A stretch of DNA of 64,000 nucleotides from a phage, in sequence record PX880101.1; one strand, 5' to 3'. Below the pieces are notes generated by a model. That model worked only from the letters and a program-made list of their open reading frames with translations. It was not told where the DNA came from and made no database searches. A program made the position numbers and the translations under genes. Positions 931-34,172 of the stretch are shown here, piece by piece (position 1 is the first letter of the stretch; each line of letters starts with the position of its first letter).

Positions 931-3354
931 ATGAGCATGTGGTCGTTCGATTTTGAGTCATCCGGTTTGCTGGAAGACCCAGATCTTTATTATCACTGCG
1001 GTCTGTTTAAAGAGCTGAATAAGAACCGTTTTATGCTGTTCCTTCCTCTAAATGACCGCACACACTACTCCGAGGAGGATATAGAAAAGGCTAAGAACTT
1101 CATTCTGGCAAAGAAAACTCTTTATAAAGATTTTGAAGTTCGCATAGCAGATTTTTCGGAGTTGGAAGGTTGGCTTACAGGCAATTCCGACTGGTCACCA
1201 ACAGCTTTGAACTGCCATAACTGCTACAGTTATGACTTTATGCTGATGGAGAGATTGTCCGGTATTCATTTTGATATGTTCCGTGATCCTAAATGCATGG
1301 GGACTATCAACGACCACCAGGTTAACCTGTTTGATACGTTGGCGATGAGCCGAATTTTGTGGCCTGATCGCCCTCTACCAAAAGGTTGTCCGGACGCTGT
1401 ATTCAACCCGGTTACTAAGAAAATGCAGCCTGTTGGTCCTCACGGCCTTATGGCATGGGGCTACGCCCTTGGTAACCAGAAAGTTCAAATTGATGACTGG
1501 CGCGATCTTCCGTTGTGGAAGTATGTGGATCGTGTATTCGAGGACGTTATCATCCAGGAGCTGCTCTGGAAAGAGCTGGTAGCGGAATCAAAAGGTGTAT
1601 TCTACGGCAAATCTGACATGCAGAACTTTATGTACGATCCTGCCAAAGAGAAGCCGAAAGGGTTCAAGAAGATCACCTGGAAGAACGCATTACGCCGGGG
1701 TATGCTGCAGCACTTCCTGATGGAGCTGCAGGCCCGTCAGGGTGTATATTTCGACATAGATGGAGCTATTGCTTTACGTGACCGTTGTGATGCGTGGATG
1801 AAAGAGATCGCTGATCGTGTTGAACCTCAACTTCCTTTAAAAGAGTTGTCAATGTCTCAGCGGCCCAAGTTCCCTGAAAAGCCGTTTAACCAAGATGGGA
1901 CAATCTCCAATAATGGTTGGAAATGGTTAAAAGATAAGCTTGGCTATCCTGTGGACATGAGCGCTTTAGAGTTCAAAGCCCCACCTAAGCGAGCATTTAC
2001 CTCCACAGGGGATGTCAGTAAGATGGGGATAAAATGGTGTGAAGAGATGGGCTGTAAAGACCCTGATAAGATGGCTGATTTCTTGAGGGGCTATATTAAG
2101 GGCACCTCCACACCACAACCTTTACCTAAAGAGCTAATGGATCAGGCAATAAGTGATCTACAGCAGAAGCGAATGCCTGACTGCAAGATACCTATGAAAA
2201 TCAGCAATCAGGACGACATTAAGCGATACCTGATCAGTGCTGGTTGGCTTCCGACAATGTGGAGAACTAAGGATGTAACTAAAGACAGCAAGAAGAAAGC
2301 TCTACCTGATGCAGATGTTGATGCACGAGTATATGCATATATGGACGAGCTTTTAGAGTCAGAGTATTGTGACCTGATTATCAACTTCTGGAACAAAACT
2401 GATGCTAAGTTCCAGACAACCGTGCACAAGTTCCGAAGCTTTCCTAACTCCGAAAGGATTAAAAAGGAAGTATTCGGGAAAATACGTAGAAAAGCCAGGG
2501 CACTTATTACTTCTCCGCAACTGAAAGATACGTTTGGACACCTATGTCCGAATCTTGAAAAATTGAACGGAGAGATGGCTAAAGATATCGTCTTGTGGTT
2601 ATCCTTGCGAAACCGCAGATCGGTCCTTGATCCAATCAAGGAGGATAAGGTTGATACTGGTCTTCTTAATCACCCACGTTTGAAGATTGACCATAAGCTT
2701 CCTGCTAAAAGTTCTGGATTAACAAACACTTCCCGACAGAAACACAGTATTTGTGCGAACATGCCTAAACCATCTCCTAAAGTGGTTATGGGTAAAGAGA
2801 TGCGTAGTCTGTGGGGTGTTCCTCCAGGATACTTTGAGATTGGTATTGACGGGTCCAACTTAGAGCAGCTTATCGGGGCTTGGGGTGCCTTTGAGTTCGA
2901 CAACGGCTTGTATTATGATGTTGTAAGTAACGGGGACGCACACCAAAACAATGCTGAGGCATATACAAAAGTAGCAGGTAGAGAGGTGTCTCGTAACGAC
3001 GGTAAACCTATCACGTATGGGGTTATGTATGGGGCACAAAAAGATAAAGTTGCAGATATGCTGGACATCTCTCCAGAGTTGGGACAAAGGGTAATCGATG
3101 CACTCTGGGATGCCAACCCAGGTCTTAAGGGGCGCAAAGAGGATCTGGAGAAATTCTGGGAAGCAACAGGTAAGAAGTTTATCTACTCTTTTGATGGTCA
3201 TGCTATCTGGACCCGATCTAAACACTCTTTACTTAATGCATACCAACAAAATGGCGGTGCATCGTTGTGTGACTTAGTTGGAATACTCATGCACCACCAG
3301 ATGGTGAAGCGTGGGTGGTACGATGAAGGTGTTCGTCGTATTATTTATTACCAT
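931..3354 (+). CDS. DNA polymerase family A, exon 1 (3'-5' exonuclease plus polymerase motifs A and B)
   Basis: FDFESSG (Exo I), IDGSNLEQL (motif A), KPITYGVMYGA (motif B), NAYQQNGGASLCDL (helix before motif C); the unspliced frame ends IIYYH-K-stop at 3355-3360, before motif C is complete. Confidence 0.85.
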
Positions 3355-3630
3355 AAATAACATTGTGGCTTCATAGAGTAATCTATGTCGAATAACCTCT
3401 TTAACTGCGGGAAGCCTAAACCTTATGGCAAGGTAATCCGCAACGAAGCGCTCAAAAGAGCGAACGCTCAGAGGCCATTCCGAAAGGAAGTAGACCAGCA
3501 AGTGCGGTCGAAATGGGAGGATTCCTGTGGTTGCTTATCATAGGAATATGAGATGGTCCGATCCTACGTGAAAACGTATGGCTATGCACGTAAAGGTGCG
3601 GGGTAGCTTAACGACCTACCTGAACTATTG
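3355..3630 (+). other. Candidate group I self-splicing intron without ORF, inside the DNA polymerase gene
   Basis: Follows exon base U (3354) and ends in G (3630); GTGG at 3365-3368 can pair with exon end CCAU; GNRA-capped hairpins at 3372-3387 and 3478-3489; R-like UCAGAGGCCAU (3468-3478) and S-like AGAUGGUCC (3551-3559). Confidence 0.55.
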
Positions 3631-3984
3631 GATGAGTACCAACTTCAAGTCCCTGACACACCGAAGTATAAGACTGTGTACACCTTCGACACAATCGAAG
3701 AACTGGAAGCATTTAAGGCAGAGCAGGAGGCCAAACTTCATGTGTTCGACGGTCATAAGTACAAAAAGGCACGCAAGGATGAGGACGGAAACGAAGTGGT
3801 TGACAGAGACGGAAACACGGTGTACGATCCTATCCTGAATGATGACGGAAAGCTTGAACTTATCTGGAGCCCTGTGGGTGAAATGGTGGTGCATTGCTTC
3901 TGGCAAGCTTCTAAAATGATGGGCGTCCCGTTCCAGATCACAGGTGAATACTTGTGTGGTCGTAATTGGGGTGATTGTCACTAA
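3631..3984 (+). CDS. DNA polymerase family A, exon 2 (motif C Asp-Glu through conserved C-terminus)
   Basis: No ATG (only in-frame TTG at 3628); frame starts DEYQLQV, completing YH|DE motif C, and ends GRNWGDCH, like the T7 gp5 and Klenow C-termini. Confidence 0.7.
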   Translation, partial: DEYQLQVPDTPKYKTVYTFDTIEELEAFKAEQEAKLHVFDGHKYKKARKDEDGNEVVDRDGNTVYDPILNDDGKLELIWSPVGEMVVHCFWQASKMMGVPFQITGEYLCGRNWGDCH

Positions 3985-28377: not shown

Positions 28378-28410
28378 GTAAAAAGAGGGGCCTAAGCCCC
28401 CCTCTTTGTC
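28378..28410 (-). terminator. Rho-independent terminator (minus strand)
   Basis: Minus-strand AGAGGGGGGC-TTAG-GCCCCTCT followed by TTTTTAC. Confidence 0.55.
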
Positions 28411-29793: not shown

Positions 29794-30122
29794 TAGTCTT
29801 CCCCCAGGTTCAAAGGTCCTAAGATTTCATATGCCAGATTAGAAGTTACAAGAGGGTCTTCTGCGTCTTTAGTATTATACCACCCGTGAATAACCAGAGT
29901 CCCACTTTGTTTCATGTCCAACTGGAACTCTTCTGCCGTTTCCTCATCCAGCTCCAAGATTTCCATAAGGTATTTGATGTTAGGGAGGTATGCAGCTGTT
30001 ACAGTCCCCTCTACCAGACCTTCAGGCCAACCTACATCTGGATGACAAGTAGGAACCAGGTTGGTCAGCTTAATGGTGTACGCTTTTTCTGCACGAGCCT
30101 TCAGTAACGGGTCAATCTTCAT
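29793..30122 (-). CDS. hypothetical small acidic protein (tandem family member)
   Basis: ORF; coupled starts and stops. Confidence 0.5.
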   Translation of the reverse strand: MKIDPLLKARAEKAYTIKLTNLVPTCHPDVGWPEGLVEGTVTAAYLPNIKYLMEILELDEETAEEFQLDMKQSGTLVIHGWYNTKDAEDPLVTSNLAYEILGPLNLGED

Positions 30123-30472
30123 TATTCGTCCTCCTCTTCGGTACCTGCTTCCAGTAATAAGTTAAGAATATCTTCTGCACAAGGCTCATAGAACTCTTGG
30201 CCTTCATTATCGATGATTTTATAGTCATCTCCACGAATAATCAGGGGATCACTCTCAAAATTATCGAGACCTTTAACAACGACAACACGATCGATTGCCA
30301 TCATTGTAAGAACTTTATCGACATCTTCCTCTGCTACACCATACTGCAGCAGAATGTCTTTGGTAGGAGGAACAGCATCCACCACAACACCGTTACCAAA
30401 ACCTTCCGGGAGTTTAGCTAAAATATCTTCCGGAACCACATTCACATCAAAACCAGTAATTTCTACTTTCAT
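30122..30472 (-). CDS. hypothetical small acidic protein (N-terminus MKVEITG)
   Basis: ORF; acidic C-terminus EEEDE. Confidence 0.5.
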   Translation of the reverse strand: MKVEITGFDVNVVPEDILAKLPEGFGNGVVVDAVPPTKDILLQYGVAEEDVDKVLTMMAIDRVVVVKGLDNFESDPLIIRGDDYKIIDNEGQEFYEPCAEDILNLLLEAGTEEEDE

Positions 30473-30733
30473 TTACAGCACCTCTTCGTCAACTACTTCA
30501 TAAAAATGGCTTGGGATTGCAATAGCGTTCTCACCTTCACCCAAGAACACTGTCCCACTAACGATTAACATTAGAAGAACGTCTGCGATACCTTCCTCGG
30601 GGACGTTGCCAAAACCTTTGATCAGCTCGTAGGTTGGAATATTTACCTCTAAGATGTCACCATCTTTAGAACGGAAATCAACACCGTCCTGAATCTCTGC
30701 CGTTTCAAGGTTTTTCAATTTAATCTTCATCAA
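30473..30733 (-). CDS. hypothetical small acidic protein (tandem family member)
   Basis: MMKIKLKNL N-terminus; C-terminus VVDEEVL. Confidence 0.5.
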   Translation of the reverse strand: MMKIKLKNLETAEIQDGVDFRSKDGDILEVNIPTYELIKGFGNVPEEGIADVLLMLIVSGTVFLGEGENAIAIPSHFYEVVDEEVL

Positions 30734-30809
30734 TCGGTCTCCTGTCTTGTTAAGATGAAGGTATTATTTCACACAGGGTTGGCGTTGTCAACACCTGTGT
30801 GCAAGAAAA

Positions 30810-31205
30810 TTACTGAAACAGTGCAGATAAATTACCTTCTGGTGGGAACTTATCTGCCAAAAACGGTGTTAGCACAGTAGCCTTCTGAAGATCTGGGGTC
30901 CACTCGTTGTTCAGAACATCCCAGTAGTACGCAATATTGCTGTGTGGGTGCCGCATTACGAACTTTTTCCCTTCGTAGTCATCTGAAACCTCTACAGAAG
31001 AAATAACAACAGAATCTTCAAGGGTTTCTTCATAGAAAGATCCACCTTCAAATTTCCAACGAGATGCAAGAGCCCCTGCCTTGAACGCTGCAGATAACGG
31101 ACTGTCGGCAAGAACATACATTTCTTGCACTCTGTCGCTGCGATCTTTGCTTCTTACGTTGTATACAGTATCTGAGCTATACTCAACACGGTATAGGCTT
31201 ACCAT
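30810..31205 (-). CDS. hypothetical protein, paralogue of 33017-33415
   Basis: Shared segments HP.S...YW....W.P...A..L. Confidence 0.55.
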   Translation of the reverse strand: MVSLYRVEYSSDTVYNVRSKDRSDRVQEMYVLADSPLSAAFKAGALASRWKFEGGSFYEETLEDSVVISSVEVSDDYEGKKFVMRHPHSNIAYYWDVLNNEWTPDLQKATVLTPFLADKFPPEGNLSALFQ

Positions 31206-31537
31206 TACCGCACCTCCTCAATAACTTCCACATCTGAACCTACCACAAATGCAAAAGGACAGGTTTCATGAAAGATATCCGGATCGCCGCCAAGCTTGCT
31301 AACAATTTCTCCACCACTAATAAACACAAGCTCACCGATATTCATCAGATTGCTGAAATAGTACCCATAATGATTAAAGAATGCAGCAGGGTCAGGTAGA
31401 CTAGTAGCCTCAAGCACTACATCGGTTGAGGTTACTTTCTTATCATAACCTCTCGCCTTTTGAGATGCAAGATCTGCAGAATCCTCAGGAGACCGGAGAT
31501 GCACAGGAATTGTTTCACCAATAAAGCGTACTTTCAT
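31205..31537 (-). CDS. hypothetical small acidic protein (tandem family member)
   Basis: MKVRFIG N-terminus; C-terminus GSDVEVIEEVR. Confidence 0.5.
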   Translation of the reverse strand: MKVRFIGETIPVHLRSPEDSADLASQKARGYDKKVTSTDVVLEATSLPDPAAFFNHYGYYFSNLMNIGELVFISGGEIVSKLGGDPDIFHETCPFAFVVGSDVEVIEEVR

Positions 31538-31541
31538 ATTA

Positions 31542-31805
31542 TCACCCAACAACCATAGCTTCAAAAGGAGTCATGAACGAATAAACGGCATCATCATCTG
31601 CTTCAGGGAATGCTCCCAAAGACTTCATGTCTGAGCCCTTGACAAATACAAGGTTTTGATCAAAAGCTTCTTGGGGGTCAATCCGATACATATTTCGTAG
31701 AATATCGCTTACCTCCTCATCAAGAGGTGAGTATGCTGTGCACGTTTTTCCGATCAAGCTTTGAGAATCAGGGTAGCCACCTGAAGTTTTAAAATAAACA
31801 ATCAT
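31542..31805 (-). CDS. hypothetical small acidic protein (tandem family member)
   Basis: ORF in tandem array. Confidence 0.5.
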   Translation of the reverse strand: MIVYFKTSGGYPDSQSLIGKTCTAYSPLDEEVSDILRNMYRIDPQEAFDQNLVFVKGSDMKSLGAFPEADDDAVYSFMTPFEAMVVG

Positions 31806-31896
31806 ATAGTATCACCTCTGGTAAGAGATTGGGATTCCTTTCCCATAAATAATTACAAATCTTCCTTAGCGAGGAAGTATGCTAATCCAAGCAGGA

Positions 31897-32166
31897 TTAT
31901 TCCTCTACAATCTCATACACATCAGGAGTTACAATCAACTCTTCTCCATTACCAGGTGCAACAAACACCACCAAACCCTCAGGTGTGTGCTTTTTAGCCA
32001 TCTCGATAACATCTTCTCGCAGAGCTGGCTCCATCAGATCAAAACCTTCACCCAGGGCATCACGAACCACCTTCATATAGTCCACTGGTTGTGCTTCAAC
32101 AATCATGCCTTCAACCAGACCACAATTTTTGTCTGCCAGCTCAGTTTTGAATAATTTAATTTTCAT
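31897..32166 (-). CDS. hypothetical small acidic protein (tandem family member)
   Basis: MKIKLFK N-terminus; C-terminus VYEIVEE. Confidence 0.5.
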   Translation of the reverse strand: MKIKLFKTELADKNCGLVEGMIVEAQPVDYMKVVRDALGEGFDLMEPALREDVIEMAKKHTPEGLVVFVAPGNGEELIVTPDVYEIVEE

Positions 32167-32303
32167 TTAGAGGTCTCCTCAATTATTTGATATTAATAGC
32201 CGTAACCTAACACATTAACTACAACTGCGATTGCAAACATAATTTCAAAGCATGCAATCTCTACATTTGGGACTAATTTCTTAATCACACCCATTGTAGC
32301 ACC

Positions 32304-32624
32304 TCATTCTCCAAAGTCAATCTTTACTTTGCCTTTCCCCTTACCTTTCTTTCCACCGCATTTAGCCAGCTGACGTGCTGCAACATCTACCATACGGTCA
32401 GTTGCCTCGTAAGCATCACTGCCTTTAGCCTTGGCAATAACTTCTTTTCCAGAATTGTCAAAAATGAACGCCATAACTTCCTGGTGATCATTTTCAACTT
32501 TTACACTCACACGTGCATAGTTAACAGAGGGATGTAAACGCTCCAGCTTGGACATTTTGCGGGAAATAAAAGATACCATACCTTCTGTGATTTCTACATT
32601 GTTGCCAGTGATTTCAATTTGCAT
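32304..32624 (-). CDS. hpf: Ribosome hibernation promoting factor / RaiA-family protein (HPF homologue)
   Basis: MQIEITGNNVEITEGM...KLE...VKVE...AKAKGSDAYEATDRMVDVAARQLAK aligns along its length with E. coli HPF (recalled as MQLNITGNNVEITEAL...KLEQ...LKVEK...ASAEGQDMYAAIDGLIDKLARQLTK). Confidence 0.75.
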   Translation of the reverse strand: MQIEITGNNVEITEGMVSFISRKMSKLERLHPSVNYARVSVKVENDHQEVMAFIFDNSGKEVIAKAKGSDAYEATDRMVDVAARQLAKCGGKKGKGKGKVKIDFGE

Positions 32625-32673
32625 AACGTGTTCCTTTTAAGGAAGAGGGAATAACTATCTCTCTTTGAAAACA

Positions 32674-32702
32674 ATGATACTAAATCTGAAGCGTTGTGTC
32701 AA
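32674..32702 (-). promoter_or_regulatory. sigma70-like promoter TTGACA-N17-TATCAT driving hpf (minus strand)
   Basis: Minus-strand hexamers with 17-nt spacer, about 50 nt upstream of the hpf ATG. Confidence 0.55.
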
Positions 32703-32708
32703 CAGTTT

Positions 32709-32999
32709 TTACAGCTTGTTGTCGATAGTTTTTAAAATATCCACAGCAAGATCTGCCATTTTTCGAACATACTCTGCAAACTCAACAGGATCCTTGATCA
32801 AAGAATTCACAGGGTCGTACCCTAGAGCGTTTAAAATGGCTGCAGCATCTACAACCTTCTCATCATTTGCGAAGATCTCTCCGTCAAACTTGTAGGTCCA
32901 TTTTGAGTCAACCTTAGCAGAGCAGGGTTTGTCCATGCTTGTTACACCATCGTCTTTAAACTCTCCTGCGTTATCAATATTTAGAATTAAATCCATCAT
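32709..32999 (-). CDS. hypothetical protein
   Basis: ORF. Confidence 0.5.
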   Translation of the reverse strand: MMDLILNIDNAGEFKDDGVTSMDKPCSAKVDSKWTYKFDGEIFANDEKVVDAAAILNALGYDPVNSLIKDPVEFAEYVRKMADLAVDILKTIDNKL

Positions 33000-33016
33000 G
33001 GTGACACCTCACTGTT

Positions 33017-33415
33017 TCAGTTTAGCTTTTCTTCAACAACCCCATAACTTGGGGCAGAGTCAAGAGCTTTCTGGTTTAAAAGTGGCGTAGCAGAATCTGC
33101 AAACGGTGTCCAAGTTTTTGTTCTGGCATTCCAGTAATGCTTCACTCTGGAATCTGGATGCACTATAACAAAAACTTTTTCACTTGTCAACACATTAATT
33201 TCTTCTACACCCTTGCTGATAATTTCTCCGTCATAGCCCCCAGTCTGGTATCCTTCGTACCAGGTTCTTGCATAGGCATAGCCAGCCTGCCAGCATGCAG
33301 CCTCCTCCGAGGTGGAGACTACGTAGAAGTCTTTCTCAAATTCCGGAATACGCCCTTGCTTTACGCTCCAAGCTCCGCGAATTTTCATTGTTACTTTGAA
33401 AAGCTTGTTCTTCAT
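33017..33415 (-). CDS. hypothetical protein, paralogue of 30810-31205
   Basis: Shared segments with 30810-31205. Confidence 0.55.
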   Translation of the reverse strand: MKNKLFKVTMKIRGAWSVKQGRIPEFEKDFYVVSTSEEAACWQAGYAYARTWYEGYQTGGYDGEIISKGVEEINVLTSEKVFVIVHPDSRVKHYWNARTKTWTPFADSATPLLNQKALDSAPSYGVVEEKLN

Positions 33416-33416
33416 A

Positions 33417-33671
33417 CTACCGCTCTACAATCTCTACGTCTGTTCCTACACCGAAGGCATAGTAATGTTCTTCCCCAAAGTAATACTTGGGGACACCCGC
33501 TTTGATCAGATCTAACCCGCGAATAAATACCACACCGTGTGATACAGTGGAATGCTTCTGACGCACAGGATCGTTGTCAGGCAACCATTCAAAGTACACC
33601 GCAGGTACAACCTTTCCCTTCAGGAAGGATTGTCCCAAGTAGACGTTAGAATCAAGAATTTTAACCTTCAT
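33417..33671 (-). CDS. hypothetical small protein (MKVKIL family)
   Basis: MKVKILDSNVYLGQ...GTDVEIVER. Confidence 0.5.
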   Translation of the reverse strand: MKVKILDSNVYLGQSFLKGKVVPAVYFEWLPDNDPVRQKHSTVSHGVVFIRGLDLIKAGVPKYYFGEEHYYAFGVGTDVEIVER

Positions 33672-33888
33672 TCTCGTCCTCCACTATCTCTACATCCTCA
33701 CCAAGGGCAAAGTTGTAGGTCCACTGGCTGTCAAAGCAGTCCTGAGATGCACCAGCGGCAATAAGATCTGCACCTTTTATTTTTAAAAGGTCAGGATAAT
33801 CTTCGTTAGGGATAGCGGTAAACACTTTCCCCACTAAGGGCTCCTGACCAATATAGAAGCTTGAATCTAAAACTTTAACTTTCATCAA
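33661..33888 (-). CDS. hypothetical small protein (MKVKVL family)
   Basis: MMKVKVLDSSFYIGQ...GEDVEIVED. Confidence 0.5.
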   Translation of the reverse strand: MMKVKVLDSSFYIGQEPLVGKVFTAIPNEDYPDLLKIKGADLIAAGASQDCFDSQWTYNFALGEDVEIVEDENEG

Positions 33889-34172
33889 CGGTCTCCCTCA
33901 GGCGGTTGTGGGACGTAAACACTGTTACGAATATCGTCAGCAGTGTAGTAATAAGTGGTTCCAACCCTATCTCGGGCTGCAATGTACTCTGCTATACCAA
34001 CAAGTGCCATTGATTTGGTGGCGTATCTTCCCCACTCGTTAGCTCCCCAGTAGAATTTAGACCAGTAGGGAATAAGACCGAACAAATATACCTTTTGACG
34101 AACTTCCCAGTAAGTGCCTTTTCCGACAAGTTTAAACTCTACTTCACTACTGTTAATCTTTTTCATTATCAA
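33885..34172 (-). CDS. hypothetical protein
   Basis: ATGA coupling. Confidence 0.45.
   Translation of the reverse strand: MIMKKINSSEVEFKLVGKGTYWEVRQKVYLFGLIPYWSKFYWGANEWGRYATKSMALVGIAEYIAARDRVGTTYYYTADDIRNSVYVPQPPEGDR

Follow-up and report, generated by a model that had tools for sequence, protein, structure and literature searches.

A divergent HPF/RaiA-family protein of rV5-like phages, with altered ribosome-contact residues and a basic C-terminal tail

Phages of the rV5-like group (Vequintavirus) encode a small protein that almost certainly belongs to the HPF/RaiA (S30AE) family, as its sequence and its predicted fold both indicate. We examined its gene in a stretch of phage DNA of 64,000 nucleotides (sequence record PX880101.1, hereafter the window), where a minus-strand reading frame gives a product of 106 residues, MQIEITGNNVEITEGMVSFISRKMSKLERLHPSVNYARVSVKVENDHQEVMAFIFDNSGKEVIAKAKGSDAYEATDRMVDVAARQLAKCGGKKGKGKGKVKIDFGE. 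Compared with Escherichia phage ECO111 5-P, the window region shows 99.9% identity; for most of the remaining rV5-like myoviruses that it matched, the figure is 95-99%. A first-pass annotation, made from the sequence alone, had recognised a phage-encoded HPF/RaiA homologue by the motifs MQIEITGNNVEITEG, KLE, VKVE and ARQLAK; all of these are found in the product, and the identification is borne out by profile matches and by the modelled structure. The gene and its promoter are already known, and the finding as first stated adds no discovery. What we add is a sharper hypothesis on its role, drawn from the specific ribosome contacts that were lost, from the unique tail of basic residues and from the evidence of strong purifying selection.

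In the GenBank entry of rV5 (DQ832317), the gene appears as ORF144, 'sigma 54 modulation factor', and its promoter as 'Sigma70-type promoter; P144'. The rV5 product (gp144, ABI79209), called HPF by Mizuno et al., is 97% identical to that of the window; it is the same gene at the same locus with the same promoter. The allele of the window has 106 residues and reads GNNVEIT near its start, like E. coli HPF, whereas rV5 and most relatives read GNVEIT and have 105 residues. Mizuno et al. 2019 counted rV5 HPF among virus-encoded ribosomal proteins (PMC6375957), and Mathieu et al. 2020 noted hpf in five infant-gut rV5-like phages, 'as already described'; we found no later functional work on phage HPFs beyond the former study and the mention in the latter. 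Across sequence records the product is labelled 'sigma 54 modulation factor', 'ribosome hibernation factor', 'hpf' or 'ribosome-associated translation inhibitor RaiA'. Some records call the gene 'ATP-dependent protease La type I'.

Table 1. Features of the phage hpf locus in the window, with coordinates counted from its first nucleotide.
Feature	Coordinates	Strand	Basis
HPF/RaiA-family CDS (106 aa)	32304..32624, stop codon included	minus	ORF list; orthologue of rV5 ORF144 / ABI79209
Folded HPF domain part	32358..32624	minus	AlphaFold2 block-mean pLDDT 83-95; Foldseek matches
Tail, residues 90-106, GGKKGKGKGKVKIDFGE	32307..32357	minus	Predicted disordered; polybasic Gly/Lys; purine-rich repeat
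-35 hexamer TTGACA (rV5 'P144')	32697..32702	minus	Sequence; DQ832317 annotation
-10 hexamer TATCAT, 17-nt spacer	32674..32679	minus	Sequence
Shine-Dalgarno-like AAGGA, 7 nt before ATG	32632..32636	minus	Read from sequence
Hydrophobic 33-aa ORF, MGVIKKLVPNVEIACFEIMFAIAVVVNVLGYGY	32193..32294	minus	Sequence; rV5 ORF145, MaxBurger bas54_0154

Both family profiles place the protein above their thresholds, so that a search against S30AE speaks for the assignment rather than against it. PF02482 (Ribosomal_S30AE) matches residues 3-89 with 56.7 bits, against a Pfam gathering cut-off of 23.7 (E 4e-15), and TIGR00741 (HPF/YfiA family) gives 56.8 bits against a cut-off of 40.9. Among sequences of solved structures, the best match is E. 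coli HPF 2rql (E 4e-15), with residues 1-90 of the phage protein aligned on 1-89; the top PDB matches are all to E. coli HPF (2rql, 4v8h, 6h4n), with E-values of about 1e-14 to 1e-15. An AlphaFold2 model computed from a 24-sequence alignment (mean pLDDT 84, pTM 0.74) contains the elements E2-8, H14-30, E34-44, E47-56, E61-68 and H71-90, which is the topology of HPF. Searched against the PDB with Foldseek, the model returns 35 matches at E <= 1e-3, and every one is HPF, RaiA/YfiA, protein Y or a related hibernation factor. V. cholerae HPF 4hei leads them (TM 0.81/0.92, rmsd 1.0 Å), the E. coli HPF of the hibernating ribosome (6h4n_x) is included, and query-normalised TM values to solved HPFs are 0.79-0.82 with an rmsd of about 1 Å. 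The objection that the protein might fold differently from HPF therefore fails.

Within the family, the origin of the phage gene, judged by profile scores and identities, is a gammaproteobacterial short hpf and not raiA. This follows from three comparisons: the HPF equivalog of NCBIfam (NF007780) scores 65.2 bits and the RaiA equivalog (NF007654) 22.8 bits; identity to E. coli HPF (44% over 88 residues) exceeds that to E. coli YfiA/RaiA (25%); and the nearest bacterial representative is a short HPF of enterobacterial type, again at 44% identity. Both equivalog scores miss their cut-offs, of 125 and 158 bits respectively; HPF proper of gammaproteobacteria, to which the former model belongs, acts together with RMF to make 100S particles. 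With PF02482, cellular short HPFs and YfiA reach 81-99 bits and the proteins of these phages 48-57 bits; in profile terms the phage protein is an outlier of the family, at roughly half the cellular score. The RefSeq label 'ribosome-associated translation inhibitor RaiA' is unsupported at the subfamily level, given the RaiA score and the YfiA identity above. Nor is the protein a long-type HPF of Gram-positive bacteria, for it is only 106 residues in total, with residues 91-106 predicted to be disordered, and has no folded C-terminal dimerisation domain of about 60 residues.

The closest cellular counterpart for comparison is E. coli HPF (YhbH, 95 aa; 2rql, 6h4n), which has the same fold and a near-identical N-terminus. 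We mapped two published sets of ribosome contacts onto alignments of the family: that of the hibernating ribosome of E. coli (Beckert 2018) and that of HPF and YfiA from enterobacteria and Pseudomonas (bioRxiv 10.1101/2025.10.07.680626). The family contact set consists of a basic track on helix alpha-2 (K80, R83, K87, K89 and K91), a beta-sheet motif (T53/H62/E51), Y30 and K26. Contacts kept in the phage protein, in HPF numbering with the phage number in brackets where it differs, are K26, E44, E60 (E61), D75 (D76), R83 (R84), K87 (K88) and K91 (K92), all given as ribosome contacts in the second source; R83 is the residue that touches m4C1402.

Other contacts of E. coli HPF are lost. Y30, which stacks on A790, is replaced by L; R33, an E-site tRNA contact, by S; E51 by M; T53, part of the m2G966 motif, by F; and H55, a uS9 contact, by F or D. 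On helix alpha-2, K80 is changed to V and K89 to G, which leaves three of the five conserved basic residues, and the C-terminal H95, which stacks on G693, is absent. Altogether, roughly one third of the residues published as contacts of HPF with the ribosome are missing. A further departure occurs at position 17, which is V in the phage protein versus R or K in 84% of 140 diverse homologues. Most of the contact replacements recur in a lineage that is only 64-66% identical; the alignments show them to be conserved, lineage-specific traits, not products of decay.

The first-pass annotation had aligned the product end to end with E. coli HPF. That is true of the HPF domain only, since E. coli HPF has nothing that corresponds to residues 90-106 (GGKKGKGKGKVKIDFGE). 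The Lys/Gly-rich C-terminal tail that the annotation also described is indeed what these residues form. The tail carries a net charge of +4 and brings the pI of the whole protein up to 9.0, versus 6.5 for E. coli HPF. Values of pLDDT below 50 at residues 91-96 and 98-106 predict that it is disordered. Tails of 0-46 residues are normal among short-form homologues, and a (GK)n tail occurs in none of the 98 others. The purine-rich repeat that encodes it is prone to insertion and deletion: one orthologue is 2 residues shorter and two have frameshifted ends (GRKKGKGERQSKD), while the final residues vary among orthologues as IDFGE, IDFWD or IDFE. In the distant lineage, the tail is different yet basic (KYSKSKGIDKRTAKWDY).

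In the cellular factors, the C-terminus of HPF runs along the mRNA path to the E-site codon's position, where H95 stacks on G693 (Beckert 2018), and the longer tail of RaiA heads towards the RMF site (bioRxiv 10.1101/2025.10.07.680626). The Gly/Lys-rich tail of the phage protein extends 11 residues beyond that of E. coli HPF and could plausibly reach the region of the RMF site. E. coli RaiA/YfiA (protein Y, 113 aa) resembles the phage protein in its fold, in the ribosome site shared by the family and in having a flexible extension beyond helix alpha-2; the RaiA tail, in contrast, is acidic (net charge -3).

Homologues were gathered by an exhaustive search of representative proteins, from annotated phage records and from contigs encoding the one close relative that this search yielded. 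Among 1.84 billion representatives, 141 proteins match at E <= 1e-3 and one alone falls below 1e-10. That protein (P0004) has 103 residues, is 64-66% identical and is encoded on contigs of 44-126 kb. Homologues of the genes that neighbour hpf in the window flank it there, so the two loci are syntenic, with hpf at one fixed position in a block of small genes; of the 6-kb region that was compared in the P0004 lineage, 32% matches Vequintavirus DNA, with an identity of about 80%. A word-indexed homologue search gave 5 close relatives, and a scan of viral contigs 2 loci. With tblastn, the protein was found in 119 phage records, all matches being rV5-like save one Salmonella bacterial contig, where the match is the host gene at 42% identity. 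At least 9 phage records among the matches listed have a 100% identical protein, for example MaxBurger, which labels it 'ribosome hibernation factor'. Eighteen records named 'Campylobacter phage' (MG065635, MG065646 and others) carry the locus with 94-97% protein identity; MG065646, the sole one of these inspected, is marked UNVERIFIED and classified as Vequintavirus. Their 'Campylobacter' host label is probably wrong.

Over the folded core, 11 orthologues give dN/dS ratios of 0.03-0.11 with a median of 0.05, at dS values up to 0.69. By this measure the gene is clearly functional and under strong purifying selection. Enterobacterial-type HPFs among those listed are 76-100% identical to E. coli HPF, versus 44% identity between the phage protein and its nearest bacterial representative. 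This gap, together with the syntenic lineage at 64-66% identity, points to one old acquisition of a gammaproteobacterial hpf, followed by vertical inheritance and strong divergence. A 'relatively recent' transfer, as put forward in 2019 (PMC6375957), seems a poor match to this picture.

HPF-like proteins of jumbo phages (Cronobacter GAP32 K4F6Q6 and Escherichia PBECO4 L7TII8) are likewise phage-encoded and share the S30AE fold. They are only 23-26% identical, belong to phrog_8990 versus phrog_12469 for the Vequintavirus protein, and are absent from the tblastn matches at E <= 1e-5. Their low identity and different PHROG suggest that they were probably acquired separately.

The claim that the gene has its own sigma-70 promoter stands. 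TTGACA-N17-TATCAT is present on the minus strand, read from 32702 down to 32697 and from 32679 down to 32674, and is followed by 49 nt to the ATG; it is no special feature of hpf, being one of many. The window holds 20 sites that match at least 11 of the 12 sigma-70 consensus bases, versus 1.5 +/- 1.1 expected from Markov simulations, and in rV5 itself the genome paper described 33 consensus-like promoters spread over the genome. Such sites lie on the plus strand at 4.2-23.8 kb and on the minus strand at 26.7-59.2 kb, each half using a single strand, and the minus-strand sites share their strand with the small-gene block that holds hpf. The hpf promoter is thus real, more than chance would give, and one of a series in this same-strand block. 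Its position in a phage gene block, behind a near-consensus sigma-70 promoter, sets the gene apart from E. coli hpf.

The strand split of the promoter sites implies convergent transcription units. A terminator-like hairpin is readable on both strands at 28382..28407. Between hpf and its upstream neighbour we found no convincing terminator, and read-through from upstream promoters is likely for this reason. Because the promoter is so close to consensus, its sequence suggests transcription by the unmodified host polymerase, and hence early expression; we found no literature on the transcriptome or expression timing of Vequintavirus. Across the 13 loci compared, including the distant lineage (L004), the -35 hexamer TTGACA is invariant, the spacer varies at several positions and the -10 element is TATCAT or TATTAT. 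The ribosome-binding site is kept as AAGGA or GAGGA in rV5-like orthologues. A perfect 7-bp hairpin, AAGAGGG-N7-CCCTCTT, is found between P144 and the ATG in the leader of rV5 and most of its relatives. A corresponding leader hairpin in the window (32625..32673) was considered and set aside, as its stem is imperfect and its folding energy of -7 kcal/mol is not significant (z = -0.9). A second promoter-like sequence, TTGACT-16-TACAAT with an upstream TG, overlaps the 3' end of hpf at 32320..32293.

The first-pass annotation had further suggested that the phage may act on the dimerisation of host ribosomes or on translational shut-off; the available data do not support this part. Mizuno et al. 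2019 expressed rV5 HPF in E. coli and examined the ribosomes by mass spectrometry: its peptides were in the crude extract and absent from 70S or 100S ribosomes purified in high salt, and 100S particles were unchanged (PMC6375957). The rV5 protein is, as said, 97% identical to ours, and the loss of about a third of the contacts weakens the suggestion further. Growth phase, true loss of binding and salt stripping were the explanations offered by Mizuno et al. (PMC6375957). We regard the negative pull-down as weak evidence, because the ribosomes were salt-washed and the samples from the source cells were almost all 70S. High salt may remove host RMF, HPF and YfiA from ribosomes too.

Our leading account, on which we place about half of our belief, is that the protein binds weakly and reversibly in the decoding cleft of vacant ribosomes, and so acts more as RaiA does than as a promoter of 100S. 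Unmodified host RNA polymerase would transcribe the phage hpf early in infection. On vacant 30S or 70S particles of the host, the protein would then dock in a reversible way at the decoding cleft (A/P site), through its retained contacts K26, E44, E61, D76, R84 (at m4C1402), K88 and K92 (phage numbering). Its flexible polybasic tail would follow the mRNA path past the E site, to the region of RMF and the anti-Shine-Dalgarno sequence. With other contacts lost, the protein would bind more weakly and come off more readily, which could explain why the rV5 protein is lost in a high-salt wash. Ribosomes standing idle would be stored or shielded as 70S monomers, with no promotion of 100S dimers, and the phage protein would compete with host HPF and RMF. 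Such docking, with a tail on this path, would bring the outcome closer to that of RaiA than to that of HPF.

Competition of this kind could also serve the opposite end. Mizuno et al. proposed that the phage protein occupies or perturbs the host HPF and RMF sites just enough to prevent or dissolve 100S particles, whereby the ribosomes of slow-growing or stationary hosts would stay available for phage mRNAs (PMC6375957). A tail longer than that of HPF and aimed along the path to the RMF site would suit such a competitor, weakened core contacts would ease its displacement by initiation factors or mRNA, and tblastn finds no RMF homologue of the phage in the window (E above 6). We hold this version to be unlikely nonetheless: the small 100S fraction did not change on expression, though that test was weak, with samples almost all 70S (PMC6375957), and any occupant of the A/P site also blocks translation itself. 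It overlaps heavily with the RaiA-like account, and the net effect is the main difference between them. Because a remodelled surface under purifying selection is joined to a unique (Gly-Lys)n tail, a broader reading is conceivable, if doubtful: an unconventional phage-specific tool, either an antagonist of RMF/HPF hibernation in the host or a protein exapted to a non-ribosomal ligand. Antagonism, if true, would wake ribosomes or keep them for the phage.

Exaptation taken by itself, with an HPF-derived protein working off the ribosome on another RNA, nucleotide or protein ligand, seems to us quite unlikely. It would agree with the negative ribosome pull-down (PMC6375957) and with a remodelled contact surface that is under strong purifying selection and common to two diverged lineages, and it has a precedent in Acb4 (PF13876), a small phage protein that acts as a sponge of cyclic-nucleotide signals in immunity and whose fold resembles V. 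cholerae HPF 4HEI (PMC11722364). Membership in the Acb4 family itself can be rejected: the phage HPF has no match to PF13876 at E <= 1 in Pfam and no other sequence or profile similarity to Acb4, whose helices are arranged differently and which is a tetramer. The arginine that contacts m4C1402 is kept, moreover, as are three of the five basic residues of helix alpha-2, and the pull-down counts for little if high salt strips host hibernation factors as well. A role in host shut-off, in which an early protein would block initiation on free 30S or 70S particles and so suppress host synthesis, is improbable. The promoter is strong and probably early, the gene sits among small same-strand genes without Pfam matches (a host-takeover role of those being assumed), and HPF and RaiA occlude the positions of mRNA and A/P-site tRNA (Beckert 2018); but no mechanism that would spare phage mRNAs is visible, ribosome profiles were undisturbed on expression (Mizuno et al., PMC6375957), and the contact residues are weakened, not strengthened. 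That hpf is a decaying passenger of host origin, without function in the phage, can practically be dismissed: the strong divergence from cellular HPFs would fit, but the dN/dS of about 0.05 already refutes decay, 119 phage records carry an intact copy of the gene, and it keeps its position in the distant lineage, with a conserved promoter.

There is real interest in phages that carry genes of the translation machinery, and coliphages of the rV5-like group are common in the gut and in phage therapy. Control of ribosome hibernation by a phage would bear on the lytic exploitation of slow-growing or stationary hosts.

Ten small ORFs that neighbour hpf have no Pfam matches, and we found no tRNA genes in the window. 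The hydrophobic 33-aa ORF begins 9 nt past the hpf stop codon and is probably co-transcribed with it; the distant P0004 lineage has no called ORF there. An 89-aa ORF that lies two genes downstream of hpf (31897..32166, minus strand) is labelled 'sigma 54 modulation factor' in some records (nom_135, APCEc02_082), which looks like a propagated mis-annotation because it has no Pfam match. At about 30100..34000, also on the minus strand, adjacent small ORFs have similar, acidic ends: ...GTDVEIVER, ...GEDVEIVEDENEG, ...GSDVEVIEEVR, ...PDVYEIVEE and ...FYEVVDEEVL. None of these has a Pfam match, and the likeness of their ends suggests a family of paralogous small proteins.

Elsewhere in the window, the Rfam model of group I introns (RF00028) matches over its full length at 3345..3580 on the plus strand, and scores 64.7 bits (cut-off 50, E 4e-14). 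The match starts at the very end of an 809-aa DNA polymerase ORF (931..3360, plus strand). Public rV5-like records give 'DNA polymerase' and 'hypothetical protein' there, with no intron annotated; the 118-aa ORF that follows (3628..3984, plus strand) could be a second exon.
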